Assembly (NCBI GenBank): GCA_002305635.1
Contig: DBPR01000029.1
Location: forward strand, 53,281-117,280
Origin: Anaerolineaceae bacterium UBA1415
Lineage (GTDB): Bacteria > Chloroflexota > Anaerolineae > Anaerolineales > Anaerolineaceae
Direction of reading: 5' to 3'
Length of the DNA: 64,000 nucleotides
Numbering within the stretch: position 1 is the stretch's first letter; the number at the start of each line of letters is the position of its first letter. This document shows positions 9,732 to 57,908 of this stretch, piece after piece. The translations under genes and the position numbers were made by a program. The notes under the pieces were generated by a model, which did no database searches, was not told the DNA's origin, and saw only the letters and a program-made list of their open reading frames with translations.

Positions 9732-10637
9732 ATGGTAAAGAAAACTGGTCAGGCGAGGCTGATATTCATCCTTTTAGCCCTGGCGCTCGCGATTGTGTTT
9801 GCGTTTTTCCGATGCAGCAGCGTAAACCAGGAACGCGTTCTTCCAACACCCACGAAAGTGGAATTGGGCGACTACGCGGGCTACACCATCCTGAACCGTT
9901 ACCCCCACGACCCCACCTGTTACACCCAGGGCTTGCTGTATCACGAGGGCTTTCTTTATGAAAGCTGCGGCCTTTACGGAGAGAGCGATCTGCGCAAGGT
10001 TGACCTCGAAAGTGGAAAGGTCTTGCGGCAGATCGAGCTGGAAGATCAGTACTTTGCCGAGGGTCTGGCGCTCCTGGACGGTTTGCTCTATCAATTGACC
10101 TGGCAGGAGGGGCAGGCTTTTGTCTACGATCTGGAGACTTTTGAGCTGGTCCGCAAATTCCAATACAACACCGAAGGCTGGGGCTTGACCACCGACGGCG
10201 AAGCCTTGCTGATGACCGACGGAAGCAACAAGCTCTTTTGGCTCGACCCCGGTACTGGCTTTGTGGTTCGCGAAGACCACATCACCTGGCAGGGACAGCC
10301 GATTCAATACCTGAACGAGCTGGAGCTCATCCATGGCGAGCTTTACGCCAACATCTATCTGACCGATCGCATCGCGCGCATTGACCCGGCGACTGGTCAG
10401 GTGCTGACAATGCTTGATCTGAGCGGTTTATGCCCGGATGAAAATCTGAAATTACATGGTGAGGTGCTGAATGGCATCGCCTACGATGAGGAGAACGACC
10501 GACTATTCGTAACCGGCAAGCACTGGCCCTGGCTTTACGAGATCAGCTTGCGCCCGATCCCGGAACCGATCATCCCGACGCTTACGCTAACGCCGACAAG
10601 CCTTAGAGTTCCAATACCTGAGTTTCAAGGACCCTGA
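9732..10637 (+). CDS. Glutaminyl-peptide cyclotransferase (beta-propeller glutamine cyclotransferase family), secreted/anchored
   Basis: N-terminal hydrophobic anchor followed by YPHDPTCYTQGLLYHEGFLYESCGLYGES, typical of this family. Confidence 0.75.
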   Translation: MVKKTGQARLIFILLALALAIVFAFFRCSSVNQERVLPTPTKVELGDYAGYTILNRYPHDPTCYTQGLLYHEGFLYESCGLYGESDLRKVDLESGKVLRQIELEDQYFAEGLALLDGLLYQLTWQEGQAFVYDLETFELVRKFQYNTEGWGLTTDGEALLMTDGSNKLFWLDPGTGFVVREDHITWQGQPIQYLNELELIHGELYANIYLTDRIARIDPATGQVLTMLDLSGLCPDENLKLHGEVLNGIAYDEENDRLFVTGKHWPWLYEISLRPIPEPIIPTLTLTPTSLRVPIPEFQGP

Positions 10638-11625
10638 AACGGGCTTCCTTCAGTCCCGGCAGGCCTTCCAACAGATAAGAGGGTCCACTGCCCTCAACGC
10701 AAAAAGACGCGCTGACCGCGCCCGCGATCGCCGCCTGGACGACATCATATTCCTTGCGATAGTTGGCGATAAAACCGCCGTCAAAGGCATCCAGCATGCC
10801 GGTTGGGTCGCTGACGCGGCTGGCATAGGCAGGTACGATCCAGCGCTTTTGTCTGATGCGGGAATAGACCAAAACGCTGCCGTCTTTGGCGTGGATGAGG
10901 ATATATTCCGGCCCATGACCCGCCAAAATTCGGGCGATCTCCCACAGATCGGCGCTGTGCCCCTGGAAAAGGCGAAAAGCCTGTGCCTCAGTGCACATGA
11001 AGGCGGTCACATCGGCAATGAGCGCGCGCATTTCCTCCCAAAAGATCGGGTCCATATAGCAGCTGGTTGCGCGCATCGAGAGGGTCATGATCAGCCCCCC
11101 CTTGAGCAGCGAGGGCAGTATCTTGTGGGAAAGGAAATCGATCGGGCAGATATGCGCCGCGGAAGCCTCCAGAAAATGGGGCGGCAGGTCGGTCACGCGG
11201 ATGCTGTCCGCCCGATAGTCAGTTTTGCTGCAATAGATGGGGTAGGTGGGTTTGTAATTCAGCAATTCCGGCGGGAAGGGCAATTGCCTTTCCGCGAAAT
11301 GTGAGATCGGGTTTTCAAACAGTGCTTTTTGGGCTTCGGTATAGCTGATAAAAAAGCGATCGTCAATGGCTTCGCTGCTGCGGTAGATGCCCGCGGTATC
11401 GATCCCAAGCGATCGAAAATGATCCAACCATTCTTCGGGATATTCCTGATCCACCCGCGCAACCATTCCCGTCGAGGCTCCCCACTGCAAAGCAGCAAAA
11501 CCGGCGTAGCTCAGGTTGCCGCCGGGTTGATCGATGCTGGCGGGGGCATTGGCAGGGAGGATAAATTCCCGACGCAGACGGCCAAGCATCACGACGTCGG
11601 GAACGGGTTTCAACAGTTCGCTCAA
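10603..11625 (-). CDS. PfkB-family carbohydrate/nucleoside kinase
   Basis: 340-aa ORF with a ribokinase-like C-terminal DPTGMLDAFDGGF motif. The start is a TTG directly abutting the PPK2 stop, so the start is uncertain. Confidence 0.65.
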   Translation of the reverse strand: MSELLKPVPDVVMLGRLRREFILPANAPASIDQPGGNLSYAGFAALQWGASTGMVARVDQEYPEEWLDHFRSLGIDTAGIYRSSEAIDDRFFISYTEAQKALFENPISHFAERQLPFPPELLNYKPTYPIYCSKTDYRADSIRVTDLPPHFLEASAAHICPIDFLSHKILPSLLKGGLIMTLSMRATSCYMDPIFWEEMRALIADVTAFMCTEAQAFRLFQGHSADLWEIARILAGHGPEYILIHAKDGSVLVYSRIRQKRWIVPAYASRVSDPTGMLDAFDGGFIANYRKEYDVVQAAIAGAVSASFCVEGSGPSYLLEGLPGLKEARFRVLETQVLEL

Positions 11626-12483
11626 TTACTCTTCTTCCGGTTCCTTCTCTTCATAAGATTGAACCATTTCCAGGACGCGCTGATAATATTGCTCCAGATC
11701 AGCAGGTGGAGCGGGATATTGCATCTTCATGCCCACCAGGGTGTCGCGAACGATGGTAGCGATCAGCAGATTGCGATACCATTTTTTGTTGCTGGGAATG
11801 ACGTACCAGGGCGCCCACTCCGTGCTGGTCTTGTTGAGCAGGTCTTCATATGCCAGCATGTAATCGCCCCAGAGAGCGCGGTCATCAAGGTCGCCGGGGT
11901 TGAACTTCCAGTTTTTGCTGGGTTCTTCAAGGCGCGCCAAAAAGCGCCTGGCTTGTTCCTCAAGGTCGATGTTAAGGTAAAACTTGAGAACGACCGTGCC
12001 CTCATCGACCAAAAGCCGCTCAAATTCCCGGATGTGTTGGTAACGTTTTGACCAAACTTCTTCGGGCATCAGGTTGAGGACGCGCACCGCCAGCACGTCT
12101 TCGTAATGGGAGCGGTTGAAAATGACGATCTCGCCTTTACGCGGGGTTTGGCTGTGAATACGCCAGAGATAGTCGTGCGCGAGCTCCAGCCAGGTGGGCA
12201 CTTTGAAGGAAGCCACGCGCACACCCTGGGGGTTGACGCCCTCGAAGACAGCGCGGATCGTGCCGTCTTTGCCGCCAGTGTCCATAGCCTGCAGGACGAC
12301 CAAAAGGCGCTTTTTCCCTTCGGCGTAGAGCAATTCCTGCAATTCTTCGATCTCTTTGTTGAGCTCCTTCAGGGCGGCTTGCCCCGCTTTCTTTTTGCCC
12401 TCAAACTCACTCGAGTCGTTGGGGTCAAGATCGGAAATGCGGATGGGTTTGTCTGGTCTTACCAGGTATTTTTCAGTATTCAT
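11626..12483 (-). CDS. ppk2: Polyphosphate kinase 2 family protein
   Basis: LLVVLQAMDTGGKDGT (Walker A-like), HDYLWRIH, IVIFNRSHYEDVL. I chose the start at 12483 (MNTEKYL) with AAGGAGAG upstream. Confidence 0.85.
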   Translation of the reverse strand: MNTEKYLVRPDKPIRISDLDPNDSSEFEGKKKAGQAALKELNKEIEELQELLYAEGKKRLLVVLQAMDTGGKDGTIRAVFEGVNPQGVRVASFKVPTWLELAHDYLWRIHSQTPRKGEIVIFNRSHYEDVLAVRVLNLMPEEVWSKRYQHIREFERLLVDEGTVVLKFYLNIDLEEQARRFLARLEEPSKNWKFNPGDLDDRALWGDYMLAYEDLLNKTSTEWAPWYVIPSNKKWYRNLLIATIVRDTLVGMKMQYPAPPADLEQYYQRVLEMVQSYEEKEPEEE

Positions 12484-12595
12484 GTTCTCTCCTTCGCTTG
12501 TTGAGTTGATTATATTCGAGATAAAACCGTTCTGGTTTAAGCAAGGCGGCTTCATTAATTATAAAGAACGAATGACTTCAATCGTAAAAAAATTG

Positions 12596-13126
12596 TTACG
12601 GTTCCACAATAACATCAATATAAGCTGCCACCTGTCTGCCAACATTACCATTGTTTTCCATGACCTGGGTTTTAAACAAAACTCGGACTTCAGCTGGCAA
12701 TTGGATTTCTTCCAGGTCGGGAACGCCAGCCGGAACCAACATCACAGAATCGCCAAACTCATTTGCTTCAATTGTTCTATCAGAAATGGTTGAAGTCACG
12801 AGGTTCTTTAACTCTCTCCAACCCTGATTAGTTTCATCAAAATAAAAAAAGTAGATGTATTCCCCGTCTATGTATAAAGGAGTTTTATCGTTCGGAATCT
12901 CTACTATTACATCAACCAGGTAATTTTTCTTAAAAAGAGTATTGTCACCCTGCATTAAAGAGATTTTTATACTTTCATTCACATCATCTTTTTCAGATAG
13001 TTTTGCCAGTTCATAAAAACCACTATCTTTTTCTGAGAGAGTTTTACTACATGCTGTAAGCGAAAAACAAAGCAAAAGGATTGTTGCAAGGTTGATTTTA
13101 ATATGATTACAGAAATTATTTTTCAT
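12596..13126 (-). CDS. Hypothetical lipoprotein (AT-rich gene)
   Basis: Signal peptide with lipobox LTAC. I recognise no other motif. Confidence 0.5.
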   Translation of the reverse strand: MKNNFCNHIKINLATILLLCFSLTACSKTLSEKDSGFYELAKLSEKDDVNESIKISLMQGDNTLFKKNYLVDVIVEIPNDKTPLYIDGEYIYFFYFDETNQGWRELKNLVTSTISDRTIEANEFGDSVMLVPAGVPDLEEIQLPAEVRVLFKTQVMENNGNVGRQVAAYIDVIVEP

Positions 13127-13194
13127 TCTTCCACCTAAATATTAGAAATCCAAACACCATTATAAACCGCACTCTTCCATCATGCGCTTGAAGA

Positions 13195-13555
13195 AACAGC
13201 AATTCTCAGTATGGAATAATCAAGCACTTGGTATAGTCTCCTCAATGGCAGTACACAACCACAAACCGTGTTACTACACAGAGTAGAACATTTAGGGTAT
13301 GTGTTTAATAATCGGAGTTAAGGACTACAGATGTAGGGGCGGACTGCCATGTCCGCCCGATGGTGTGGAAAATTAAATTTCACAATTCCTTGATACTCCA
13401 GTAATATTTTATTTATTCCAGACGACGGGCGGGCGCAGCGGCCCGCCCCTACCACAAAATGTCCTTATAGGCCATTTCTGATCAAAAACTAAATAACATT
13501 CGCTTGAGAAAAGGAGAATCCAGATTGCAAAAAATTCATACTGAGAATTGTTGTT
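13195..13555. repeat. MITE-like non-coding element bounded by a 19-bp inverted repeat
   Basis: AACAGCAATTCTCAGTATG (13195-13213) against CATACTGAGAATTGTTGTT (13537-13555) matches 18/19 as reverse complements. The interior has two GC hairpins: GTAGGGGCGGAC..GTCCGCCC at ~13332, and GGGCGGGC..GCCCGCCCCTAC at ~13427. Confidence 0.5.
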
Positions 13556-34089: not shown

Positions 34090-35610
34090 ACCTGACTTGC
34101 ACGTTTTAGTGCCCTGAAGAGAGCTTTTTGAGCATATTTTGAACGTTTTCAGGAATCTCTGGTTCGATCAACACCAGTTCATTCCTGATTTTCACTTCTG
34201 CTGACCTAAGTGGGCGGATGGTTTTGATGAATTGTTTTATGCTCACACCAGTCTGCCTCTCGATATTCCTGCTAATCGCCAAAGCAGCAAACACAATTGT
34301 GAGGTGGGCTTCAATCGCGTTTCTTTTTTGATGATAAATGGGTCGGGCTTTGAGGTCTGACTTCATCATCCGAAAGCTGGTTTCCACTTGAAAAAGCTGA
34401 TGATAACAAGCAATCACCTCTTCATCCGGGATGTCCAGATTAGTCACATAGCCTTTGATTCCCACCAATGCTCTCGCCTTCTCAATTAGCTCCAGGTTCA
34501 GATATTTTTATCTGACCATCAATGGATATTTCTGCCTTAGCAATCTGTTTCTCGATGTTACGCGTGTCCAGTGCCGCCCGTTTCTCGCGATATTGATAGA
34601 CGATGCGATAGTTTTTCTCTTCTGACACCACGATCTGCTGGTCCTGCAGGGCTTTGGACCTGCTAAACTCAGCTATCTCATAGGGCACTTTGTTCAGACG
34701 AGAGCCCACAATGTAGGTGTAGCCAGCTTTGGTGAGTTCATCAAAGTTGCTGGTACTGAGCATAGCTGCATCTGCCACCACTGTGACTTTCTTCAAGTTG
34801 TGCTCCGCCTGAAATGCCTGAATAACCGATAGTATGGTTTATTCCCTTCAAAGCTTTGTAAGCCCAAAGGAAAGCCGTTTTTATCCACCAGAAGCCCAAT
34901 TATGATTTGAGGTTCCAATCGGCGTTCTTTACTCAATCCTGGTTTGCGATACTCATCTTCCTTCTGCACTTCAAAGTACAGACTGGTGACATCGTATAAC
35001 ACCAAACTCAAGCTCTCGCCGTGTATGTGATCAAAACAGGCTTGAGTGATGACTTTTCGATAGTCTTGCCCTGAAGCCCGATCAAGTGTTCGGTACAGCT
35101 TCCCTCTATTCCATTTTTCTGCGCCTAAGTCTTCCAAAATTCGCAAACTGTCTATCTTTGAGGTCGGTTCCACAATTCTTGCAATACATAATGACTCAAA
35201 GACCTCGTCATCTATGCTTGAAAATCCCAACCGGTCATACTGCTTTTTTAGTAAGTTCCACAACAGGGCTGAAAAAGTCCGTTTGACAGTCATTTGTGTG
35301 GGACTGGGATCGTCTGTGAATAATGCTAATTGCTTACCTTGGATTTGTTTGTGCGCAACAGATAAAAGCATTTCCAGTTCTGTTTTGCTATGTGCACTGC
35401 CAATATGCTTCAGGCGTATGATCTTGCCTTGCTGTTTGGTGACGATTTGTACTGCAGTAGCACCGCTGGCTGTTTTCACTTTACGAATGTAGGTCATTTC
35501 CTTGATTCCAACCCATCTGTCCCGTCCATTTAGTGCCCTGAAATCACCAATTTTTCATCTTTTTACTCGATGAATTGTTGGATTATCACTAAAAGCGTGC
35601 AAGTCAGGTA
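34090..35610 (-). mobile_element. IS1634/IS4-superfamily insertion sequence, decayed
   Basis: 14-bp terminal inverted repeats ACCTGACTTGCACG (34091-34104) and CGTGCAAGTCAGGT (35596-35609) bracket the three transposase fragments. I saw no clear target-site duplication. Confidence 0.7.
34106..35497 (-). pseudogene. IS1634-family DDE transposase split into three frames
   Basis: ORFs 34793-35497 (MTYIRKVKTASGATAVQIV...), 34482-34796 and 34106-34468 (...YHQLFQVETSFRMMKSDL...) are consecutive pieces of one transposase, interrupted by two frame changes. Confidence 0.75.
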
Positions 35611-38206: not shown

Positions 38207-38262
38207 GTTTTAAGGGTAAAATCAGGCCAGGAATTGTTTAAAAATGACTGCAACCTCCGCCC
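38207..38262 (+). repeat. Second copy of the 5' duplication, attached to the intact gene
   Basis: See 37688-37742. Confidence 0.6.
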
Positions 38263-39779
38263 ATGAAGATCGGAAACACATTTTCCTTTCGCTCTTATTG
38301 AGCCTGCTTGTAAAGATCCCGATCTCGCCTTTTTTCTATCCCTTTCCAGACCGTGATTCCGGCGTTTTTGCCTATATTGGGCGGCGCATCCTCAACGGCG
38401 ATCTGCCCTACCGTGATGTCTGGGATCATAAACCGCCGCTCATCTTCTACCTGAACGCTCTCGGTCTCAAAATCGCGCCCGATTCTTTATGGGGCATCTG
38501 GCTGCTTTCCGTTCTCCTTCTGGCGGTGGCGATTTTTTGCGGATTCAAACTGCTCTCAAAGCTTTTCAACAGCGAGATCGCGCTCGTTTCCACCGCGATC
38601 GCCATGGGCGGTATCCCGGTTTTGCTCGGGCTTGGCAACCTGACCACCGAGTACACCCTCCCACTGCAGTTCCTGTCCTTATTCCTGGTCTGGAAATTCT
38701 GGGATGAGGATGCGAAAGCCTCCTGGAAATACCTGTTGATTGGCGCATTGGGTGGGCTGGCTTTCCTTACCAAACAATCCGGCATTGGCATTTGGCTCTC
38801 CATCGGCCTTGTTTTGCTCGTTCAATCCTTTATTAAAGGCAAAAACCGCCTCTCGATCCTGAGATTGCTCTGGTTCGTGTCTGGCATTGCCATCGTGGTT
38901 GGGCTGGTCGCGCTTTATTTTTATCGCAACGGCGCTTTCGCGGCCTTTTGGGACCAGGCTTTTCTTTACAATTTTGTCTATGTAGGCAAAAACGAGCTTG
39001 GCTTGATCACCCGCTTTGTAAACCTGTTCACGATGCGGGAAATTGAGCCGATCGCCGTTTTCCACATGGGCATGATCGGCGCGATCCTGGCATTGGCAGG
39101 GTTTGTTTTGCGGAAAAGCGATCAGGCAAATAATAAGCAAAAAGATTTCTTTCTGCTCCTTCTGATCGACCTCTTACTCGAAGTCCTGCTGACGCAATTG
39201 CCAGACTTCACCTATGCCCATTATTATTTGACCCTTTTGCCTGCCCTCACGATCTTTGCAGGCTTAAGCCTTTCCGTTTTGTTGTCAGGACTGAAAAAAG
39301 CACCTCTACCTTTTTCACCCAAGGCTAAAAATCTCTTTTTGGCATTCTTGATCTTTTTTGCCAGCATTCCCTTGCTGACGGAATGGTATTACAGCCTGAA
39401 GGAACCGGATCAAAACTTCAACAAAGCGCTGGTCGAATTTATCCTGCAGGAAACCGAGCCGGATCAGACGGTGTTGATCTGGGGTGCGGAAACCGCCATC
39501 AACTTTTACACGGATCGAAGCAGCCCCAGCCGGTATGTCTATCAATACCCTCTGGTGCAGGAAAATTACGTAACCGAAGAAATGATCCTCGACTTCCTTA
39601 GCGAAATCGAGCGGAACAAACCCGAGCTGATCATCGACAGCGCCCGGGCGGATATGCCCTTTCTGCGTTTTCCCATTGAATCTGAGCGCATTAATGAACA
39701 GATCAACAAAATTTACTCCCAATACAAAGAGGCGGCGATCATTAACGGCTGGTGGGTCATTCAATTGGTGGAACCCTAA
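38244..39779 (+). CDS. GT-C fold glycosyltransferase (ArnT/PMT, GT39/GT83-like) membrane protein
   Basis: 511 aa with ~12 TM segments, an acidic first loop (PFPDRDSGVFAYIG) and a soluble C-terminal domain. It is a paralog of 56379-57908. Confidence 0.65.
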   Translation: MTATSAHEDRKHIFLSLLLSLLVKIPISPFFYPFPDRDSGVFAYIGRRILNGDLPYRDVWDHKPPLIFYLNALGLKIAPDSLWGIWLLSVLLLAVAIFCGFKLLSKLFNSEIALVSTAIAMGGIPVLLGLGNLTTEYTLPLQFLSLFLVWKFWDEDAKASWKYLLIGALGGLAFLTKQSGIGIWLSIGLVLLVQSFIKGKNRLSILRLLWFVSGIAIVVGLVALYFYRNGAFAAFWDQAFLYNFVYVGKNELGLITRFVNLFTMREIEPIAVFHMGMIGAILALAGFVLRKSDQANNKQKDFFLLLLIDLLLEVLLTQLPDFTYAHYYLTLLPALTIFAGLSLSVLLSGLKKAPLPFSPKAKNLFLAFLIFFASIPLLTEWYYSLKEPDQNFNKALVEFILQETEPDQTVLIWGAETAINFYTDRSSPSRYVYQYPLVQENYVTEEMILDFLSEIERNKPELIIDSARADMPFLRFPIESERINEQINKIYSQYKEAAIINGWWVIQLVEP

Positions 39780-46327: not shown

Positions 46328-46380
46328 ACCAACCGCCACCACCCTCTTCGCGCGTAAGTTGGATAGGACGGCCGTGGTAT

Positions 46381-46492
46381 AAACCCTTCTCACCCGCCCG
46401 TGGTACTTTCCCAGTATGGAAGGTCGGGTTGCGCTGCCTGCCCTTGGCTTATTTGCCAAGGGTCAACCCGACAAAATCTTAAGCCTTCTCAC
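46381..46492. repeat. Cluster of REP-like units
   Basis: AAACCCTTCTCACCCGCCCGTGGTACTTTCCCAG, then the AGGTCGGGTTG...CAACCCGAC long hairpin (46422-46472) with inner CCCTTGGC-ttattt-GCCAAGGG, then TAAGCCTTCTCACCTGCCCGG. Confidence 0.55.
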
Positions 46493-46840
46493 CTGCCCGG
46501 TAGGGTCGGTTTTTAAGCCTTCGCCCATGGGGAGAAGGTGCCCGCAGGGTGGATGAGGGGTAATCGAGAACCTGCCCGAAGGCCGGGTACTACCTAAAGC
46601 CTTCCCACCTGCCCGTGGTGCTTTCCCAGGGGGCGGGAGAAGGCCTGCCCTCTTTTAGAGAGGGTGCTCGGCAGGTCGGTCTTTAAGCCTTCGCCCATGG
46701 GGAGAAGGTGCCCGCAGGGCGGATGAGGGGTAATCGAGAACCTGCCCGAAGGCCGGGTACTACTAAAAGCCTTCCCACCTGCCCGTGGTGCTTTCCCAGG
46801 GGACTGGGAGAAGGCCTGCCCTCTTTGTAGAGAGGGTGCC
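46493..46840. repeat. Tandem direct repeat, two copies of ~170 bp
   Basis: TAAGCCTTCGCCCATGGGGAGAAGGTGCCCGCAGGG starts at 46514 and again at 46684. AAAGCCTTCCCACCTGCCCGTGGTGCTTTCCCAGG occurs at 46596 and 46766. Only a few substitutions and one 1-nt indel separate the copies. Confidence 0.8.
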
Positions 46841-47053
46841 CGAAGGCCGGACTGTTTACCCGATGTTACTAGGGTGAGGGGTGTTTCTTGCGCCCTGGAT
46901 TTCCAGGATGAAGGGAAACGAAACCATGTAAGATCAACCTTACACTCGCTTGTCAACCATGGCATTCTGCCCCTGACCCCACCCAATTTTTCATAAAAAC
47001 ATCCCCCATCCAAGAGTATAATTACCCACAACGCAATCCCCGTCAGGAGGACC

Positions 47054-50000
47054 ATGACCGCGCCGGAAATCATTCACAACCTCGTCACCAGCTTTCGCGA
47101 CCTGCGCGAACAATACACCTCTGTCCACTACAAAGAAACCCAACTGCGCAACGAATTTCTCAACCCCTTCTTCATCGCCCTCGGTTGGGATGTCTACAAC
47201 GAGCGCAACGTCGCCCTCCAATACCGCGACGTCATCCACGAAGACTCCCTCGAGATCGAAGGCAAAACCCGCGCGCCTGACTACGCCTTTTGCGTCGGCA
47301 GCTCCCGAAAATTCTTCGTCGAGGCAAAAAAGCCTTCTGCCCGCGTCAAAACCAACGGCGAAGCCGCCTATCAACTCCGCCGCTACGCCTGGAACACCAA
47401 ACTTCCCCTCTCCATCCTGACCGATTTCGAGCATTTCGCCGTCTACGACTGCCGCACTCGTCCCGACCCCAAAGACAGTGCCGCCGTCGGGCGCGTCAAG
47501 CTCTATAATTTTGAAGAATACCTCAGCCATTGGGACGAGATCGCCAGCATCTTCTCCCGGGAAGCGGTCTGGAAAGGGAAATTAGACGATTTCGCCGACG
47601 GCACCAAAGGCAAACGCTCCACCACCGAGGTGGACGCTGAATTCCTCAAGGATATCGAAGCCTGGCGCGATCTGCTGGCGCGCAATATCGCCCTGCGCAA
47701 CTTCCGTTCCAGCGAAGAGCTCGCCAACCTACCCCGTGCCGAACGCCAGCTCAACTATGCCGTACAGGCGACCATCGACCGCATCCTCTTTTTGCGCATC
47801 TGCGAAGACCGCGAAATTGAGCCGCCCGATCAGCTCCTTCAAAATGCGCAGCAGCCTGATGTCTACGCCAACCTGCTCACCCTCTTTAAGCACGCCGATC
47901 AGAAATATAATTCCGGGCTCTTCCATTTTTCGGAAGAAAAAAGCCAGACCAGCGCGCCCGATACCTTTACCCCCACCTTGCAGATTGACGATAAGGTACT
48001 GCGTCAGATCATCGAAAGCCTTTATGGCCCCAGCTCCTATATCTTCAAAGAGATCCCGGTCGAGATCCTTGGGCAAATATACGAGCAATTCCTGGGCAAG
48101 GTCATCCGCCTGACGCCCAAAGGCATCGCCAAGGTCGAAGAAAAGCCCGAAGTCCGCAAAGCCGGCGGCGTCTACTACACCCCCAGCTACATCGTCGATT
48201 ACATCGTCCACAACACCCTCAGCCCTCTCCTTAATCCAAACCAGCCTTCCCAAGATGGTAAAAAAGTGGGCTTCGAAAACCAACCACCATCTAGGACGAG
48301 AGCTGTGGAAGCGCCAAACTCTACCCCTTCCAGGGAAAGGGAATTAAAGGGGTTGGGTCTTGAAAAACATCCTTCGAAAACTACGCTGAAGAGTGGGTCT
48401 TTCGATCTGTCATCGCGAGACCCGCAGGGTCGTGGCGATCTGCCTTTCCAATCTTCTTCAGATCAACAAAAAGTACAGGAACCAATGGGCTCAAACGACC
48501 AAACCTTGACCAGGTCGAAGCCTGCGGAATCGTCCAGCCAAACCCCCTCCAGGGAGGGGGGCAGGGGGGTGGGTCTTGAAAACAAACCGACCACACAAAC
48601 CATCTCCAGCGAAGCGACGGAAGCCGTAGGTCGGGTTGCGCTTGTCAACCCGACATCCACATCCCTAACCCCCGACCAGGCCCTCAAACTCCGTGTCGTC
48701 GATCCCGCCTGCGGCTCCGGCTCCTTCCTCCTGGGTGCCTACCAATACCTCCTCGACTGGCACCTCAACTACTACCTCACCCACGACCCCGAAAGCCACA
48801 TCCGCGGCAAAAACCCACCCATCGTCGCCACCGAAGGCGGTGAATATCGCCTCACCACCGAAGAAAAGAAGCGCATCCTCACCGCCAGCATCTACGGCGT
48901 CGATATCGACGCCCAGGCGGTCGAGGTCACCAAGCTCTCCCTCCTGCTCAAACTGCTCGAGGGCGAAACCGGTCAGCTCACCCTTGGTTTCGACCGCGTC
49001 CTGCCCGACCTCGGCAACAACATCCGCTGCGGCAACTCCCTCATCGGCTGGGACTATTTTGCCAGCCAGCTTTTGCCCGACGAAGAAGAGATCATCCGCG
49101 TCAACCCCTTCGACTGGCAGCGCTCCTTCCCCGAAGTCTTCGCCCAGGGCGGCTTCGACGCCGTCATCGGCAACCCGCCCTACGTCCGCCAGGAAGATCT
49201 CGGCGCCGACAAACGCTATTACCAGAGCCTCTACGAGGTCTACACAGGCACTGCCGACCTCTACAGCTATTTCATCGAGCGCGGCATCAAACTGCTGGCA
49301 CCCAACGGCAATTTTAGCTACATCGTCGCCAACAAGTGGATGCGCGCCAATTACGGTCGTCCCCTGCGTGAATGGCTCAAAAAGCAGTGTATCGATGAGA
49401 TCACTGACTTTGGCGACCTGCGTGTTTTCACCAGCGCCACCACCTACCCATGCATCCTGCGCGTCAGCAACCGCGAACCGCACAACCGACCCTGGGTGAC
49501 CACCGTCAAAACGCTTGACTTCCCCTCACTGCAGGAATACGTTGATCAAAACGGCTCAGTTGCCGACCAAACCCGCTTTGAGGATGGCGGTTGGTCGCTG
49601 GCAGGCATCGAGACCCAAAGACTGATGGAAAAGATCCGCCAAAACTCCATCCCACTGGGTGAATATGTTAAGGGCAAAATTTATCGGGGAGCAGTTACTG
49701 GTCTAAATGAAGTCTTCATCATTGACCAGTCCACCCGAGATCATCTCATTGCTGAAGATCCTAAAAGCGCTGAACTGATCAAGTCGTGTTTGTTGGGGAA
49801 AGACATTAAACGCTACGGCATTGATTACCAAAATCTTTACATGATATTCACCAGACGCGGCACCAATATTAAAGATTATCCTGCGATTCACGACTACTTA
49901 CTCAAATTTAAGGATAAATTAATGCCACGACCAAAAAAATGGGCTGGCAAAGATTGGAAAGGGCGGAAACCTGGTCCCTACCAATGGTTTGAAATTCAAG

Positions 50001-50446
50001 ATTCAATTGCCTATTACGAAGAATTTGAAAAGCCAAAAATTATTTGGGGTAATCTGGCACAGAAACCTAAATTTACCATGGATACAGATGGATACTATAT
50101 CAATGCTCCAGGGGTTATTATTCCAGTCGAAGATTACTATCTTCTGGGAATAATGAATTCTTCATTGTTTTACACATTTATTAGTGAAGTGGCAGCTGGT
50201 AGACGAGGAGGATTCTTCGAGTACAAACCCATCTATGTTTCCCAAATGCCGATTCATATCATAGATTGGGATAATATTGCTGAAGTTGAGATGGTAAACC
50301 AACTTCGTCAACTGGTAATTAGAAGGCTTGAATTAGGAAAACGCAATGCTCAAACCCCAGGGCAAGTAATGATGTTAGAAAACGAAATTGAAATTATCGA
50401 GACACATATAGACTCTGTCGTTATGACACTTTACAATCTCAAATAA
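47054..50446 (+). CDS. Type IIG restriction-modification fusion: PD-(D/E)xK nuclease, gamma-class N6-adenine methyltransferase and TaqI_C/Eco57I-like recognition region
   Basis: APDYAF...FFVEAKKP (D...ExK), YYTPSYIVDYIV, DPACGSGSFLL (motif I), GNPPYV (motif IV), YRGAVTGLNEVFII and a C-terminal ...IDSVVMTLYNL. The RBS CAGGAGG lies 4 nt upstream of the ATG. Confidence 0.85.
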   Translation: MTAPEIIHNLVTSFRDLREQYTSVHYKETQLRNEFLNPFFIALGWDVYNERNVALQYRDVIHEDSLEIEGKTRAPDYAFCVGSSRKFFVEAKKPSARVKTNGEAAYQLRRYAWNTKLPLSILTDFEHFAVYDCRTRPDPKDSAAVGRVKLYNFEEYLSHWDEIASIFSREAVWKGKLDDFADGTKGKRSTTEVDAEFLKDIEAWRDLLARNIALRNFRSSEELANLPRAERQLNYAVQATIDRILFLRICEDREIEPPDQLLQNAQQPDVYANLLTLFKHADQKYNSGLFHFSEEKSQTSAPDTFTPTLQIDDKVLRQIIESLYGPSSYIFKEIPVEILGQIYEQFLGKVIRLTPKGIAKVEEKPEVRKAGGVYYTPSYIVDYIVHNTLSPLLNPNQPSQDGKKVGFENQPPSRTRAVEAPNSTPSRERELKGLGLEKHPSKTTLKSGSFDLSSRDPQGRGDLPFQSSSDQQKVQEPMGSNDQTLTRSKPAESSSQTPSREGGRGVGLENKPTTQTISSEATEAVGRVALVNPTSTSLTPDQALKLRVVDPACGSGSFLLGAYQYLLDWHLNYYLTHDPESHIRGKNPPIVATEGGEYRLTTEEKKRILTASIYGVDIDAQAVEVTKLSLLLKLLEGETGQLTLGFDRVLPDLGNNIRCGNSLIGWDYFASQLLPDEEEIIRVNPFDWQRSFPEVFAQGGFDAVIGNPPYVRQEDLGADKRYYQSLYEVYTGTADLYSYFIERGIKLLAPNGNFSYIVANKWMRANYGRPLREWLKKQCIDEITDFGDLRVFTSATTYPCILRVSNREPHNRPWVTTVKTLDFPSLQEYVDQNGSVADQTRFEDGGWSLAGIETQRLMEKIRQNSIPLGEYVKGKIYRGAVTGLNEVFIIDQSTRDHLIAEDPKSAELIKSCLLGKDIKRYGIDYQNLYMIFTRRGTNIKDYPAIHDYLLKFKDKLMPRPKKWAGKDWKGRKPGPYQWFEIQDSIAYYEEFEKPKIIWGNLAQKPKFTMDTDGYYINAPGVIIPVEDYYLLGIMNSSLFYTFISEVAAGRRGGFFEYKPIYVSQMPIHIIDWDNIAEVEMVNQLRQLVIRRLELGKRNAQTPGQVMMLENEIEIIETHIDSVVMTLYNLK
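48240..48660 (+). repeat. In-frame block of intergenic-type repeat elements inside the RM gene
   Basis: GTAGGTCGGGTTGcgcttgtCAACCCGAC at 48626-48654. Two ~45-nt units lie at 48324-48369 and 48543-48586, each ending GGGTCTTGAAAA. More TGGGYCTT-type copies lie at ~48265 and ~48393. The block translates as a low-complexity S/T/P/G/Q-rich stretch. Confidence 0.7.
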
Positions 50447-50464
50447 GACATACTTAGGAGTACG

Positions 50465-53400
50465 ATGGTTCAAATTGGAAAAATCGATTTCCCAGAAACG
50501 TTATTAAAAAGCCTCGAGAATAATGAACTCGTCGTTTTTGCTGGTGCAGGTGTTTCAATGGGACCTCCTTCAAATCTACCGAATTTTAATGGATTGGCTC
50601 AGGATATAGGTAAGAGTGTAGGTCATGAATTTAATGAAAAGAAAGAAGCTGCAGACTTGTTTTTGGGAAGGCTTGAAGATCAGGGAATAGATGTAAAAGA
50701 ATTTGCAAAGAAAGAATTAAATAAAGCGATGAGCTTTAACCCATTACATTCAGCCATTATTTCCCTTTATGATAAGTCACAAAATCTAAGGATTGTCACG
50801 ACAAATTTTGATGATCTTTTCGAACAAGCATTTCTTTCAAAACCTGAAAAAAAAGTAAACACATATTGTTCTCCAGTATTGCCTTTAGGGCATGATTTTG
50901 AAGGTCTTGTGCATCTCCATGGTAGTGTAACAAATACTAAGAGCATGATTCTAACCGATCGAGATTTCGGTAAGGCTTATCTAACAGATGGTTGGGCATT
51001 GCGATTCTTGATACCCTTATTTCAAAAATTTTCAGTTTTATTCATTGGCTATAGCTATAACGATGTTGTTATGAAGTATCTGGCACGAGCGTTACCTCCT
51101 GAATTGACAGAAAAAAGATATATCTTAAGTACTGAAAAAAGAGACGACCATTGGCGGCGATTAAGGCTGACCCCAATTTACTATTCAGGAAGAAACAAAC
51201 ATTCTGCACTAATCTCTTCATTATCAGAGATGGCGGATAGGCAGAATAGAACTTTACTAGATTGGAAATCTAGAATTACTGATTTATGCTCAAAGGGTTT
51301 GCCGAAAGAAAAAGCAAAACTTGATGAACTTGAACAGATATTTCTAGATACTAATAGGACAAAGTTGTTTATTCAGATAGCCAGAGGATTTAGTTGGGTT
51401 CCTTGGTTAATTGAAAAAAAATTTCTTGATCCATTCACTAAACCGAATCTTGATGGATGGGCTAGATGGTTTGCTTCAATATTCATTGAGAACCAGGAAA
51501 AAATAATCTCTTTATTTATTAATAGACAGCATATGGATAGACTGTTTTGGTCATCATTAATTTATGAGGTTAATGACCTTGATTTAGAAAAATGTCGACA
51601 GATTGATTTTTCAAGGATGATTTCTTTTTTGCTCAGAACAAAGCCGATTCCCTCGAATTTGTCCCTTTATTACATAATCGCACAAAAATGCTATGAATTT
51701 GGTGATTTTGAATCATTGTTAGATGTTTTTGAAACATATGTCAGTGAATACGAAGTCTTAATCACAAAATCACTTTGGAGGGAAAGTGATACATTTGAAG
51801 TGGTAGCTGATGAACACGGAAATGAAGTGGTATATATGTTTTATCAATTTATTGAGCCTAATTTATCTTTTGCACCAGAGAGATTGTTGAATCTAGCAAT
51901 GCGAACCTTGAGAAAAATGAACAGGCTCGAAATGATATGGTCTGATTCAATTTCACAACTCAACTCTTCAAGTATGAGATTTCACAGTCTCCTCAAAGAT
52001 GTTGATAGAAATGAATATGGCACAGATTTCATACAAGTTGCTATCATTTCTGCGAGAAAAGCTCTTCTAGAAATAATGTCAAGAGATTCCGTTTTATGGC
52101 GGTTTTATACTGGTCAAGCTATACGAGACAAATGTAATCTAATTGCAAGGATTGGTTTAGATGCTTTAATTAACTCAGACTTAGTCGATAGTTCTTATAT
52201 TATTTCCGAGTTTCTTAAGATTCAACATCCTTTAGCTTGGGATATGCGACCAGAAGTATACGAATTACTTTTCACAAATTTTAAAAGTAGTAATGATGAA
52301 TTAAAAGTTTTGGTTTTAGAAAAAATAAATAAATCGATTAATGAAATGGAATGGAATTCTGATTTTAAAACAAAGCAATTAGTTAGCTGGTGTAATTTCT
52401 TCTATGAATTAGATCCCAACAACAAAATTCTAAGGATGAAAAAAGATTTGCTACAAGCAAAGTATCCTGAGGTTAAACCAAAAATAATTGGAAAAAGAAT
52501 AATTGAAGTAAGTGGAATTAAAGACCCAGACCCTTCATTTTGGTCACCAGATGAATTGATAAATATGACGACAGATGCAGAATTCGAAAAGATTCTAAAT
52601 AAAATAAAAACATTCCAGTTGTCGACAGACATTGGCTCCTCCTATATTGCCATACAACGAGCAGTTGAGAAGGATCAGGGTTGGGCGTTTTTATTTGCTG
52701 ATTATCTCGTCAAAATAGAATGTTTTAGTAATACTGTTTGGAGCCGTATATTTTTGGGGCTTCAAAAAGTTCACTTGAACGAACAAGAGAAAGAATTCAT
52801 AATAAATCTCAGTAAAATCAAGGAGATCATTCATTCTTTTCAATATTATTATTTAGAATTGCTAGAAAATCAACTAAATACTTCAGAAGACCTGTTCAAC
52901 AATACTGATATTAATGAAGTAATTACTCTCGTTGAAAAAATGTTATCTTCAAAAAATCTTGAAGTCATGGTTAGTGAAAAGTCCAGTATTCTAATGAAAT
53001 CTTGTAACAGTAATATTGGAATGATTTCATTAATTCTCATCAAATGTGTTGATATTCTGAATAAAAGAAATATCTGCAGAGGGTGCCTTGATAAAGGTTT
53101 GGAGATAATATCCGAATTAGCTAATTCATCAGAATTTGGGGATTTTGCGAGACCAATGATCTTCACCCAATTTACCTTTTTTATGACTTCTTTTCAAAAT
53201 TTTGCCATCCGAGAACTTGTCCCATTCCTGACAAACAGAAAAAATGATTATTATATTCAAGCTTGGAATGGTTTCCTAAATGGGGATAATAATCCAGCAA
53301 GCTACATCGAACATTTTAAACCCATAATGATTAAAGCTGCTCAAAGAGTTGAGCACTTGGAAGAAAGCGACCGACAATTATTCTTACAACTGTGTGCTCA

Positions 53401-53905
53401 TGTTGCAGTAAATGAGAGAAATCCAATAACCTCAATTGTTTTTCCTGTTTTTAAAGTGGTACCGTCAAAATACTTGCACTATTTTTCTAGAACCATTGGG
53501 CAAGTAATAAATACCGCAGATTCTGATTTAATCGATTCTTTATGGAATAATTTTCTTTCTGACTTTCTCGAAAAGAGAATCAATAATGCCCCTGTGGAAA
53601 CTACAGACAAAGAAACCAAAGAGATCTCAAAGTGGCTTATTAAATTAGGGAAATACTATCCTGAAGCGGTAGATTGTTTCATAAAATTCAAACCTGCAGA
53701 TTTGAGTAAATCCAACCTAATTTATAGATTAGAAAATTCTGAAATAACTGATTTATACCCATTGGCGACAAAAAAACTATTGTCATACTTAAATAAGTGT
53801 AAAATTGATTCTTGGAATAAGCAATACATACAAAAAGTTGTGGAACGTCTGAAAGTCCATCTGGATAAAACCGATATAGAAATGTTAGAAATTGAAATGA
53901 CATAA
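50465..53905 (+). CDS. SIR2-family (SIR2_2-like) NAD-utilising domain fused to a ~900-aa uncharacterised helical region; DSR-like defence candidate
   Basis: VVFAGAGVSMGPPSNLP, VTTNFDDLFE, LVHLHGS and LFIGYSYNDVVM in the first ~230 aa. I recognise no motif in the rest. The RBS TAGGAG precedes the start, which is 18 nt after the RM stop. The gene is strongly AT-rich. Confidence 0.8.
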   Translation: MVQIGKIDFPETLLKSLENNELVVFAGAGVSMGPPSNLPNFNGLAQDIGKSVGHEFNEKKEAADLFLGRLEDQGIDVKEFAKKELNKAMSFNPLHSAIISLYDKSQNLRIVTTNFDDLFEQAFLSKPEKKVNTYCSPVLPLGHDFEGLVHLHGSVTNTKSMILTDRDFGKAYLTDGWALRFLIPLFQKFSVLFIGYSYNDVVMKYLARALPPELTEKRYILSTEKRDDHWRRLRLTPIYYSGRNKHSALISSLSEMADRQNRTLLDWKSRITDLCSKGLPKEKAKLDELEQIFLDTNRTKLFIQIARGFSWVPWLIEKKFLDPFTKPNLDGWARWFASIFIENQEKIISLFINRQHMDRLFWSSLIYEVNDLDLEKCRQIDFSRMISFLLRTKPIPSNLSLYYIIAQKCYEFGDFESLLDVFETYVSEYEVLITKSLWRESDTFEVVADEHGNEVVYMFYQFIEPNLSFAPERLLNLAMRTLRKMNRLEMIWSDSISQLNSSSMRFHSLLKDVDRNEYGTDFIQVAIISARKALLEIMSRDSVLWRFYTGQAIRDKCNLIARIGLDALINSDLVDSSYIISEFLKIQHPLAWDMRPEVYELLFTNFKSSNDELKVLVLEKINKSINEMEWNSDFKTKQLVSWCNFFYELDPNNKILRMKKDLLQAKYPEVKPKIIGKRIIEVSGIKDPDPSFWSPDELINMTTDAEFEKILNKIKTFQLSTDIGSSYIAIQRAVEKDQGWAFLFADYLVKIECFSNTVWSRIFLGLQKVHLNEQEKEFIINLSKIKEIIHSFQYYYLELLENQLNTSEDLFNNTDINEVITLVEKMLSSKNLEVMVSEKSSILMKSCNSNIGMISLILIKCVDILNKRNICRGCLDKGLEIISELANSSEFGDFARPMIFTQFTFFMTSFQNFAIRELVPFLTNRKNDYYIQAWNGFLNGDNNPASYIEHFKPIMIKAAQRVEHLEESDRQLFLQLCAHVAVNERNPITSIVFPVFKVVPSKYLHYFSRTIGQVINTADSDLIDSLWNNFLSDFLEKRINNAPVETTDKETKEISKWLIKLGKYYPEAVDCFIKFKPADLSKSNLIYRLENSEITDLYPLATKKLLSYLNKCKIDSWNKQYIQKVVERLKVHLDKTDIEMLEIEMT

Positions 53906-54026
53906 CTCATCGAGTAGGTAAGGTTCCGCTCCCGTTCTTCGTTCTTATGCTGAGTGCTATGTAAAAAAACAAAACCTAGATGTTATACCACAAGCAGGTT
54001 GTGCGATCAGGGGTACGCAATTTTGA

Positions 54027-54050
54027 CCGCACAACCGCACAACCGCACAA
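54027..54050. repeat. Three tandem CCGCACAA octamers
   Basis: CCGCACAA is repeated three times. The last copy plus CCT is the reverse complement of AGGTTGTGCG at 53996-54005. Confidence 0.6.
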
Positions 54051-54146
54051 CCTCACCCTTGCACAATCCAAGGGCAGGCAACCTCAGCTTTTACCCTCAT
54101 ACCTATACAAAATACAGGGTAAAAGGGTAAAACCTCATCGCCTCCG

Positions 54147-54155
54147 TGCTATAAT
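54147..54155 (+). promoter_or_regulatory. Extended -10 promoter candidate for the ChlI-like gene
   Basis: TGCTATAAT lies 24 nt upstream of the ATG, with AAGGAAG as RBS. Confidence 0.4.
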
Positions 54156-54178
54156 TTGCCTTTGCAAAGGAAGCGACT

Positions 54179-56378: not shown

Positions 56379-57908
56379 ATGACAAGATCTGACAGCAAAA
56401 ACAGTCCCTGGTTTGCCATTCTGGCGCTTCTTTTCAGCCTGATCGTAAAACTTCCGATCGCGCCAAATTTTTATCCATATCCTGGGCGGGATTCAGGGGT
56501 TTTTGCCTATATTGGCTGGCGCATCCTCGAGGGCGAGCTGCCCTATGTCAATGTATGGGATCACAAGCCGCCCCTCGTTTTCTATATCAACGCGCTTGGT
56601 CTGAAAATGACCAACCTCTCCTTCTGGGGTGTCTGGATCATAGGAGTGATCTCGCTGGCCATCGCGGCATATTTCAGCCTGAAGCTGCTCTCAAGACTTT
56701 ACAAACCAAGCATTGCTGTCGCTGTTACCGTGGTTTGGTTGGCGTGTCTGCCGATCCTCTACGGGATCGGCAATTTGACCACCGAATACACCCTCCCACT
56801 TCAGTTTGCCAGCCTGTACGCTGCCTATCTGTGGCTGAGTGATGTTAAGAGACCCTTTTGGAAGTTCTTCCTGATCGGGGTTCTGGGCGGGATGGGGTTC
56901 ATGACCAAACAATCGAGCATTGGCGTTTGGGTCGCGATCGGCATGGCACTGGTGGCGCTGTTCTTCCATAAACCCGCGCGCAAAGACACTACGAAAAAAA
57001 TCCTTGGCATGGTCGCCGGGGTTTTCTTTTTCTGCGCATTGGTGGTTCTTTATTTTTACCTTGAAGATGGACTTAAGGCGTTTTTGAATCAGGCTTTCGC
57101 TTATAACTTTAAATATATCAGCCGTAGTAACGTGAGTGTTGTGCGACGGCTTATGAATCTGATCGACATGCGGGAAATGAAAACCATAACCGTATTTCAT
57201 CTTGGCGTAGTAGGAGGGTTTGCAGCATTGGCGCGCGTGTTCGGCAATAAAAAGGGAAAGGCTTTTGCGCCTGAGACCTTGTTCTATGGCCTGGTTGTGT
57301 TCGATCTTGTCCTGGAAGTGCTGTTAACGCACCTGCCCGATAACACCTATAAACACTATTACATGACCATGCTGCCATCTTTATCGATATTAACTGGCTT
57401 CCTGGCGTCAAGTTTGATCGATTCTCTGAACCATGATCTTGCAGGCAACAGAAAATGGTTGGAAAAGGCGTTTCTGTGCATGATGGCAGCTTTTGCCTGT
57501 ATTCCATTGTTATGGAAATGGTATGACAGTTTGCATGGTGTTACTCCAACCGTTAATGAAGGTGTGATCGAATTTGTTCAGTCCGAAACTGAACCGGAGG
57601 ATACGGTCTTGATCTGGGGTGCAGAAACGATGATAAATTATTACACCCAACGTGAGGCGCCAACCCGATACGTTTATCAGTATCCATTAATTCATGGCGA
57701 TTACGTAAACAAAGAGATGATCCTTGAGTTTCTAAATGACATTCAGGGAAAAGAACCCAAGTTTATTATCGACTCCAACAGACATGATATGCCCTTTATG
57801 ACCTTCCCGTTCAGCAATGAAGATATTGAGGAAGGGATCAACTGGATCACTGAAGAATATGAGCTGGTTGAGGATATCGAGGGTTGGATCGTTTATCAGA
57901 AGAAGTAG
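56379..57908 (+). CDS. GT-C fold glycosyltransferase (ArnT/PMT-like), paralog of 38244-39779
   Basis: Shares DSGVFAYIG, VWDHKPPL, GNLTTEYTLPLQF, TVLIWGAET and RYVYQYPL blocks with the other copy. Confidence 0.65.
   Translation: MTRSDSKNSPWFAILALLFSLIVKLPIAPNFYPYPGRDSGVFAYIGWRILEGELPYVNVWDHKPPLVFYINALGLKMTNLSFWGVWIIGVISLAIAAYFSLKLLSRLYKPSIAVAVTVVWLACLPILYGIGNLTTEYTLPLQFASLYAAYLWLSDVKRPFWKFFLIGVLGGMGFMTKQSSIGVWVAIGMALVALFFHKPARKDTTKKILGMVAGVFFFCALVVLYFYLEDGLKAFLNQAFAYNFKYISRSNVSVVRRLMNLIDMREMKTITVFHLGVVGGFAALARVFGNKKGKAFAPETLFYGLVVFDLVLEVLLTHLPDNTYKHYYMTMLPSLSILTGFLASSLIDSLNHDLAGNRKWLEKAFLCMMAAFACIPLLWKWYDSLHGVTPTVNEGVIEFVQSETEPEDTVLIWGAETMINYYTQREAPTRYVYQYPLIHGDYVNKEMILEFLNDIQGKEPKFIIDSNRHDMPFMTFPFSNEDIEEGINWITEEYELVEDIEGWIVYQKK

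Follow-up and report, generated by a model that had tools for sequence, protein, structure and literature searches.

The question raised by this locus is what purpose is served by a giant sirtuin-like protein of the uncultured Anaerolineaceae bacterium UBA1415 (Chloroflexota), in which an N-terminal SIR2 domain is followed by nearly 900 further residues. The stretch of DNA analysed, called the window throughout, comprises 64,000 nucleotides of contig DBPR01000029.1 (assembly GCA_002305635.1, positions 53,281 to 117,280 of the forward strand), and an original prediction, made from its letters without database searches, had read the protein as a defence-associated sirtuin whose uncharacterised C-terminal region may sense a phage protein and unleash an NADase, an enzyme that consumes nicotinamide adenine dinucleotide (NAD+). 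Support for this interpretation, in which a defence-associated sirtuin carries a helical sensor at its C-terminus, comes from a profile alignment with Escherichia coli Dsr1, from a match to a Dsr1 hidden Markov model (HMM), from DSR2 as the top structural match and from the placement of the gene at a defence site. The protein is a strongly divergent member of a known superfamily, and it probably acts on its own, as a one-protein sensor and effector against phages, within the branch of the Dsr1 superfamily that combines SIR2_2 with DUF4020. What began as an unknown giant sirtuin would thus become a Dsr1-superfamily immune sensor. The gene and its two domains are laid out as follows.

50465..53905, + strand: complete Dsr1-like defence sirtuin gene, stop codon included (open reading frame list, translation, full-length homologues, and orthologue P0002 at the syntenic site in contig L001).
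50465..51250, + strand: SIR2_2 (sirtuin-like NADase) domain, aa 1-~262, with GAGVS, TTN114FD116 and HLH152G (Pfam, PADLOC, NCBIfam, alignment, structure model).
51251..53902, + strand: solenoid predicted to be helical throughout (aa ~263-1146), presumed to act as the sensor and homologous to the C-terminal region of the Dsr1/DUF4020 family (AlphaFold2, hhalign, phmmer, invariant residues).

The reading frame runs uninterrupted from ATG to TAA through 1146 codons (50465-53905, + strand), a length that in DNA of 33% G+C does not arise by chance. An orthologue of the same length and 72% identity, P0002, occupies the syntenic position on the 324-kb contig L001, and the ratio of nonsynonymous to synonymous substitution rates (dN/dS) between the two genes is 0.29 overall.

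The N-terminal domain is the part that had been recognised by eye, and all four of the SIR2 motifs then named are present, GAGVS at residues 27-31, TTNFD at 112-116, HLHG at 150-153 and GYSYND at 195-200. Pfam assigns SIR2_2 to aa 110-222 (E 4.9e-21) as its sole match at E<=0.1, with no nuclease, TIR, SLOG, P-loop or NTPase domain found in that scan, in agreement with the original reading, which had seen no nuclease, TIR, SLOG or Walker ATPase motif. The Dsr1 models of PADLOC and NCBIfam cover aa 8-277. In a family alignment of 45 sequences (A1), Asn114, Asp116 and His152 are invariant in 45/45 sequences, so that the conservation of the catalytic Asn and His, on which the original prediction had staked its case, is complete across this alignment; in ThsA, KomC and E. 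coli Dsr1 these catalytic positions correspond to the TTN and HG motifs. The head is 34% identical to that of E. coli Dsr1 over aa 8-253 (BLASTP), and structures of SIR2 domains, namely KomC and SIR2 fragments of DSR2, match it with target-normalised template modelling (TM) scores of 0.55-0.64 in Foldseek. We infer from these similarities that the N-terminal domain is a SIR2 NADase active on NAD+.

Two other readings of the head have to be weighed at this point. The first takes the protein for a housekeeping CobB-type NAD-dependent deacylase with a regulatory extension, or for a decaying gene without function. CobB-type deacylase models do match, at E 1.8e-4 to 0.047, yet their scores of 13-21 bits lie far under the cutoffs of 221-320 bits and the domain is of the SIR2_2 type. 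A housekeeping role also fits poorly with the absence of the gene from the same site in close relatives, which carry other defence systems instead, and with its foreign composition: at 33% G+C, it has a G+C content at third codon positions (GC3) of ~0.27, as against ~0.8 in the flanking genes, whose individual values are 0.66-0.83. Decay is contradicted by a reading frame that is intact in two lineages, by the dN/dS of 0.29 and by the retention of all family-invariant residues, and the reading is hardly credible in either form. The second places the sirtuin among effectors gated by a small-molecule signal, like ThsA of Thoeris or KomC of Kongming, instead of by a phage protein that they bind directly, and it draws on the fact that the SIR2 domains of ThsA and KomC are the closest solved sequences to the N-terminal domain. 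However, this likeness is limited to the SIR2 domain (the PADLOC ThsA match spans only aa 7-207), whereas the solenoid of ~880 aa shares homology with the sensor of Dsr1. ThsA (type I Thoeris) and KomC work with a SLOG domain or no sensor at all, with partner genes and with nucleotide signals, none of which is present here; the window sirtuin has no SLOG/STALD or other nucleotide-sensor domain, and no TIR gene (ThsB), adjacent or otherwise, and no KomA/B-type neighbour is found in the window or at 80 related loci. Gating by a small molecule is therefore very unlikely. The features that define SIR2-HerA, SPARSA (SIR2-APAZ/pAgo) and Avs5 (SIR2-STAND) are likewise lacking, there being no P-loop/NTPase domain in the protein and its neighbours being a type IIG restriction enzyme and a Mg-chelatase-like AAA/VWA pair.

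The remainder of the protein also has homologues. Among 5.8 billion proteins searched, 1897 matched the window sirtuin; more than 1,800 proteins of ~1170-1185 aa align with it over its entire length, and the 118 most distant of the 120 matches listed cover 96-100% of the query at 25-28% identity. Among the matches listed, leaving aside its own cluster and P0002, the proteins are 1155-1227 aa long, mostly combine SIR2_2 with DUF4020 (PF13289 and PF13212) and are in part annotated 'DUF4020 domain-containing protein'. The window sirtuin and P0002 belong to the same length class as this family and align with it end to end, as outliers. Alignment A1 holds 51 invariant columns spread over its whole length, of which the window sirtuin keeps all 51; at least 20 fall in the C-terminal region, including W311, W314, W335, W362, R562, E597, W740, W759, W934, W1027, R1038, E1050 and W1057. 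The best matches among curated families are the Dsr1 models (NCBIfam NF041818, E 1.3e-63; PADLOC Dsr1, E 7.5e-54), and in the homologue P0113 positions 415-1249 of the Dsr1 model match aa 338-1156, so the similarity to Dsr1 extends beyond the sirtuin head.

Direct comparison with four proteins named Dsr1 by PGAP, from E. coli, Nitrosococcus, Pantoea and Ralstonia plasmids, leads in the same direction. The profile search that had been proposed for the C-terminal region aligns A1 with E. coli Dsr1 over 1066 columns (35-1161 to 6-1225; hhalign probability 100%, E 1e-53), BLASTP finds a second, weak, collinear match between residues 843-1037 of the window sirtuin and 956-1152 of E. coli Dsr1, and positions 913-1225 of an HMM built from the four proteins match the window sirtuin at 18.5 bits, the best of 200 shuffles of its C-terminal region scoring 3.9 bits. 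The segment matched by the HMM is the following.

52817..53788, + strand: aa 785-1108, matching the C-terminal lobe of bona fide Dsr1 and including the part aligned with DUF4020, aa ~1000-1130 (Dsr1 HMM, BLASTP, positions of DUF4020 in homologues).

Because of these profile, BLASTP and HMM matches, the tail is a Dsr1-type C-terminal region that has diverged a great deal, and the protein is a member of the Dsr1 superfamily within its SIR2_2 + DUF4020 branch. The C-terminal region is accordingly less obscure than the original prediction had it, belonging as it does to a large SIR2_2 + DUF4020/Dsr1 superfamily whose prototype has a reported trigger (PMC12803255). The DUF4020 matches of the homologues lie at aa ~1003-1138, where the window sequence aligns and keeps W1027, R1038, E1050 and W1057, so that its C-terminal part is homologous to DUF4020 yet below the reach of the Pfam model; E. 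coli Dsr1 is likewise without a Pfam match to DUF4020.

The structure of this region had been described as repetitive and helical. The helical part of that description stands, in that the predicted fold is almost all-helical and the sequence is rich in L/I/S/K/E/N, whereas self-comparison by BLASTP gives no internal repeat at the sequence level, and any repetition is purely structural, in the form of helical hairpins. An AlphaFold2 model built on A1 has a mean predicted local distance difference test score (pLDDT) of 85.9 and a predicted TM-score (pTM) of 0.49, and shows an alpha/beta fold as far as residue ~260, then ~50 helices and a single beta-hairpin at 431-448. When this model was compared with the Protein Data Bank (PDB) by Foldseek, as had been suggested with DSR structures in mind, places 1-20 were all taken by cryo-electron microscopy structures of Bacillus subtilis DSR2 (E 1.5e-7 to 8e-6) in full-length alignments of ~1100-1270 columns, followed by the SIR2 domains of ThsA and KomC and then by karyopherin/importin-beta solenoids and Avs4; the set compared includes no structure of Dsr1 or Avs7. 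Such matches favour the general design of a SIR2 head on an alpha-solenoid, and would not by themselves indicate a specific kinship with DSR2. DSR2 (PDB 8wy8, 8wyb, 8k9a and others) has the same design, an N-terminal SIR2 NADase joined to a long alpha-solenoid that binds a phage protein, but its sequence homology to the window sirtuin is confined to the SIR2 domain, where the PDB profile match covers aa 10-125, and the NCBIfam model of Dsr2 (NF041819) does not match. DSR2 senses the tail tube protein as a tetramer. Pfam, NCBIfam and PADLOC return nothing for aa 263-1146 except the Dsr1 models, and searches of PDB sequences, with the single sequence and with a profile, give matches confined to the SIR2 domain, apart from weak recoverin and Gtr1 matches at aa 579-680, which were dismissed as chance (E >= 0.01).

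Several observations weigh against the assignment of this protein to the Dsr1 superfamily as an immune sensor. Its NF041818 score is 215.3 bits, under the equivalog cutoff of 1400 bits, for which reason it is a distant relative and not Dsr1 proper; other SIR2_2 + DUF4020 proteins score 205-290 bits with the same model. Pfam DUF4020 (PF13212) is not matched at E<=0.1 in the window sirtuin, nor in P0002. Against DSR2 the global TM-score reaches only ~0.2, a value in keeping with the length and flexibility of such solenoids and with the pTM of 0.49, and the domain arrangement is accordingly not established. A full-text literature search for 'DUF4020' found no paper, and with it no tested member of the SIR2_2 + DUF4020 branch. 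Finally, identity in the sensor is only ~19% with other family members and, in the profile alignment, ~19% with E. coli Dsr1, and ligand specificity is for that reason not transferable to the window sirtuin.

What is known of Dsr1 provides the basis for a mechanism. The E. coli protein (WP_029488749 / WP_053264524; NF041818) resembles the window sirtuin in being the product of a single gene, in its place in a defence island and in its TTNFD, H-x-HG and GYS-ND motifs; at 1263 aa, it is of comparable size, the window sirtuin being ~120 aa shorter, and the homology is collinear through the whole helical C-terminal region at ~19% identity overall. In the window the host is instead a member of the Chloroflexota and the gene has 33% G+C; the window's housekeeping proteins fall into clusters whose names come from Anaerolineaceae/Chloroflexota metagenome-assembled genomes. 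When expressed in B. subtilis, DSR1 protects against phage phi29 with a transient drop in NAD+ and no collapse of the culture (10.1101/2021.12.14.472415). It was termed 'poorly characterized' in a 2026 paper. A preprint of the same year describes the Dsr1 tail as a homologue of the bilobed tetratricopeptide repeat (TPR) sensor of Avs7, identifies the major capsid protein of phage ZL19 as the sole trigger of E. coli Dsr1 toxicity and reports that defence is lost once the effector domains are disrupted (PMC12803255). Protection with loss of NAD+ is known solely for DSR1 expressed in B. subtilis and for E. coli Dsr1, and activation by a major capsid protein is reported, among Dsr1 proteins, for that of E. 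coli alone. In Avs7, a member of the STAND NTPase family, the sensor clamps an HK97-fold major capsid protein, whose binding draws the two lobes together and relieves autoinhibition (PMC12803255). The window sirtuin is tied to this TPR sensor by transitivity through Dsr1, on the word of the preprint, and has no STAND NTPase domain of its own.

On the strength of this homology to Dsr1, the ~880-residue helical C-terminal region would hold the N-terminal SIR2 NADase inactive in the uninfected cell. During infection it would bind a protein made by the phage, and binding would alter the conformation or the oligomeric state such that the SIR2 domain, through Asn114 and His152, hydrolyses NAD+, the depletion of which would bring phage replication to a stop. 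The NADase activity, autoinhibition, trigger and outcome for the cell proposed here are all modelled on Dsr1, and it is doubtful that the trigger of the window sirtuin is the major capsid protein, since the sensor is ~19% identical to that of any characterised relative.

How far the sensor has drifted can be seen from its distribution. Compared with the 43 other members of A1, the window sirtuin is 45% identical in the SIR2 domain and ~19% in the tail, while the median identities of those 43 among themselves are 56% and 38.5%. Searching with the tail alone (phmmer, 1.84 billion representatives) gives 590 clusters at E<=1e-3, with P0002 as the sole close match at 66% and the next best at 23% identity; the matches listed all have the same architecture of SIR2_2 and sensor or are fragments thereof, and none of them joins the sensor to another effector domain. 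Shorter matches of 860-1000 aa were considered as alternative architectures and set aside, as they contain only DUF4020 or a truncated SIR2_2 and look like fragments cut at the N-terminus. When one genome per species was scanned, at least 567 relatives turned up, none of them close; they come from Chloroflexota, Pseudomonadota, Latescibacterota, Acidobacteriota, Cyanobacteria, Bacillota and other groups. With the window sirtuin, the superfamily reaches the uncultured Anaerolineaceae and offers there a useful test case of sensor specificity drifting against a fixed NADase head.

The comparison between the window and L001, where the orthologue lies at 10001-13441, has a mosaic character. Within the sirtuin, identity is 99% over aa 1-100 and only 55-78% over aa 300-1146 (synonymous divergence, dS, 0.6-1.2; dN/dS 0.13-0.48), and the C-terminus of the type IIG enzyme encoded directly upstream (aa 905-1130) is identical at the nucleotide level, the neighbouring housekeeping genes having dN/dS values of 0.02-0.17. 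Judged by this mosaic divergence, the effector head has apparently been kept or homogenised and the sensor replaced, or left to evolve fast under overall purifying selection. The pattern suggests a recombination breakpoint within the sirtuin gene or the swapping of sensor alleles.

The question then becomes how the sirtuin came to stand where it does, and whether it acts alone. Its immediate surroundings comprise the following features.

47054..50446, + strand: type IIG restriction-modification gene, 1130 aa, with HSDR_N nuclease, Eco57I/N6 methyltransferase and TaqI_C specificity domain (Pfam, PADLOC).
50456..50460, + strand: Shine-Dalgarno-like AGGAG, 4 nt before the sirtuin ATG (read from the sequence).
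49190..53961, + strand: variable cassette holding an alternative C-terminal end (~420 aa) of the type IIG enzyme and the sirtuin gene (homology breaks with L089/L090, drop in protein identity, composition).
53962..54178, no strand assigned: right flank, a conserved intergenic region upstream of the Mg-chelatase-like AAA gene (alignment A2, tandem repeat, blastn).

The site of the sirtuin is a defence hotspot, and the gene belongs to a low-GC cassette that is exchanged horizontally. This was established by comparison with related Anaerolineaceae contigs that share the Mg-chelatase-like gene, the first of a downstream Mg-chelatase-like AAA and VWA pair that is conserved whatever the cargo. DNA homology (blastn) between the window and contig L089 ends at 49189, that with L090 ends at 49184, and both resume at 53962; the counterparts of the junctions lie at 5138/9657 in L089 and at 277/5235 in L090. 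The left junction is thus found inside the type IIG gene, 6 nt after the codons of its NPPY motif (aa 707-710, nt 49172-49183), and from ~49650 onward the cassette is low in G+C, with a GC3 of 0.2-0.45 against 0.7-0.85 in the flanks. Identity among the type IIG proteins of the compared contigs is 96-100% as far as aa ~700 and drops to 16-57% beyond that point. At the same site, contigs L089 and L095-L099 have a type IIG gene and, after it, a pair of genes with matches to PDC-M46A (1.9e-89) and PDC-M46B (2e-146), and L090 and L094 have a cyclase of the cyclic oligonucleotide-based anti-phage signalling system (CBASS; 7.8e-81), an E2 gene, a 4TM effector and PDC-S50 (9.1e-95). Three low-GC cargos (Dsr1-like, PDC-M46A/B, and CBASS with PDC-S50) thus alternate at the site, and since DNA homology and protein identity both break close to NPPY, each of them comes with a different C-terminal specificity end of the type IIG enzyme. 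The alternation of three defence cargos, with each swap altering the recognition end of a restriction enzyme, makes the locus a clear-cut example from nature.

The right flank carries, at 54026-54140, 3.9 copies of the tandem repeat ACCGCACA and a GC-rich palindromic unit, CCCTTGCA..TGCAAGGGCAGGCAACCTCA, which is present once in the window and two to three times in other contigs (L089 9700-9900; L090 5300-5400); this unit may be a repetitive extragenic palindromic (REP)-like element or a terminator at the recombination boundary. The window holds no tRNA gene to mark an integration site.

The type IIG gene is intact, its best PADLOC match being REase_MTase_IIG (3.8e-202), and its stop codon is separated from the sirtuin ATG by only 18 nt, a short gap that makes co-transcription of the two genes likely. 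A sigma-70-like match at 50409-50437 is weak, a mere match to consensus, and scans for promoters and terminators gave matches no more numerous than in shuffled sequence. This arrangement lends itself to the idea that the sirtuin is the functional partner of the type IIG enzyme in a two-gene system, for example as an NADase forming a second line when restriction fails or the methyltransferase is inhibited. Besides the 18-nt gap, the shared strand and the Shine-Dalgarno sequence between the genes, the idea is favoured by a cassette that holds both the type IIG specificity end and the sirtuin, and by the comparison with L001, in which the C-terminus of the type IIG enzyme and the N-terminus of the sirtuin are nearly identical to those of the window and the sensor differs. 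A wider survey of 80 family loci bears on it from both sides: at 15/80 a large type IIG enzyme is encoded within 8 kb, in most cases immediately upstream and in the same orientation, the enzymes coming from several different subfamilies, but 65/80 have none within that distance, and all-against-all clustering of the flanking open reading frames yields no real neighbour common to more than 6 loci, hence no gene conserved beside the family. E. coli Dsr1, moreover, works as a single gene (10.1101/2021.12.14.472415; PMC12803255), and the unrelated PDC-M46 and CBASS cargos that follow the type IIG gene at the same site are better explained by a hotspot. A functional partnership is therefore improbable. 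The window sirtuin appears from these neighbourhoods to be a single-gene system without an obligatory partner, and the pattern is consistent with a mobile single-gene defence module that often rides beside type IIG genes. Recurrent neighbour clusters were examined as candidate partner genes and rejected, as they proved to be spurious reading frames overlapping the sirtuin gene in GC-rich genomes.

A tentative explanation of this association is that the type IIG gene serves as a landing pad for defence cassettes. A single homologous recombination, with its left junction after NPPY and its right junction in the repeat-bearing intergenic region, would swap specificity end and cargo together, Dsr1-like genes would spread in linkage with the target-recognition domain of the type IIG enzyme, and the phage protein recognised by the divergent sensor would probably not be the capsid protein reported for E. 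coli Dsr1. Such a process would account for the roughly 1 in 5 family loci that adjoin a type IIG gene and, if general, would tie the diversification of restriction specificity to the turnover of abortive-infection modules. Nothing specific on a defence hotspot linked to type IIG genes came up in a limited search of the literature, which is no proof of novelty.

Duplicate copies of sirtuin genes of this family occur in two other genomes. In one Dehalococcoidia genome (OZ220464.1; L033, L063), a block of SNF2 helicase, type IIG and SIR2-DUF4020 genes is present twice, with 99.7% identity over at least 11.9 kb, and stops ~320 nt after the sirtuin gene, and one Arenicellales genome (L084, L086) holds two 95%-identical copies of the sirtuin gene alone; these duplicates are evidence that the modules move or duplicate. 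The locus used for comparison with E. coli Dsr1 (L007, plasmid pMTY18781-2, 3909-12831) is a defence island next to an integrase, in which the Dsr1 gene stands between a phosphorothioate-dependent restriction endonuclease and the S and M subunits of a type I restriction-modification system.

The type IIG gene itself varies between alleles. At aa ~395-545 (48240-48690), between the nuclease/helical part and the methyltransferase domain, it contains a low-complexity insert rich in S/T/P/G/Q, with a local dip in GC3 to ~0.42, and the length of the insert differs between alleles, whose proteins are 1130, 1087, 1070 and 1134 aa long. In L095 the gene is split into products of 445 and 757 aa, and L098 has only a 640-aa reading frame for the methyltransferase domain. 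Just upstream of the type IIG start, a GC-rich array of short repeats (46379-46850) includes a 170-nt tandem duplication (46504-46839, 95% match), and the region 46334-46995 stands in place of ~5.5 kb of ferredoxin/oxidoreductase genes in L001.

Farther afield in the window, a second island of low G+C (0.41-0.42) at 34-38 kb contains a DDE_Tnp_1 transposase gene (34106-35497, - strand) broken into at least two reading frames (34106-34468 and 34482-34796), beside which lie reading frames without a Pfam match. Paralogous PMT_2 glycosyltransferase genes are found at 38244-39779 and 56379-57908, with a nucleotide identity of ~68%, a figure inferred from the L001 orthologue of the second copy. This second copy is absent between the VWA and aminotransferase genes of L089/L090, a further presence/absence polymorphism near the hotspot.

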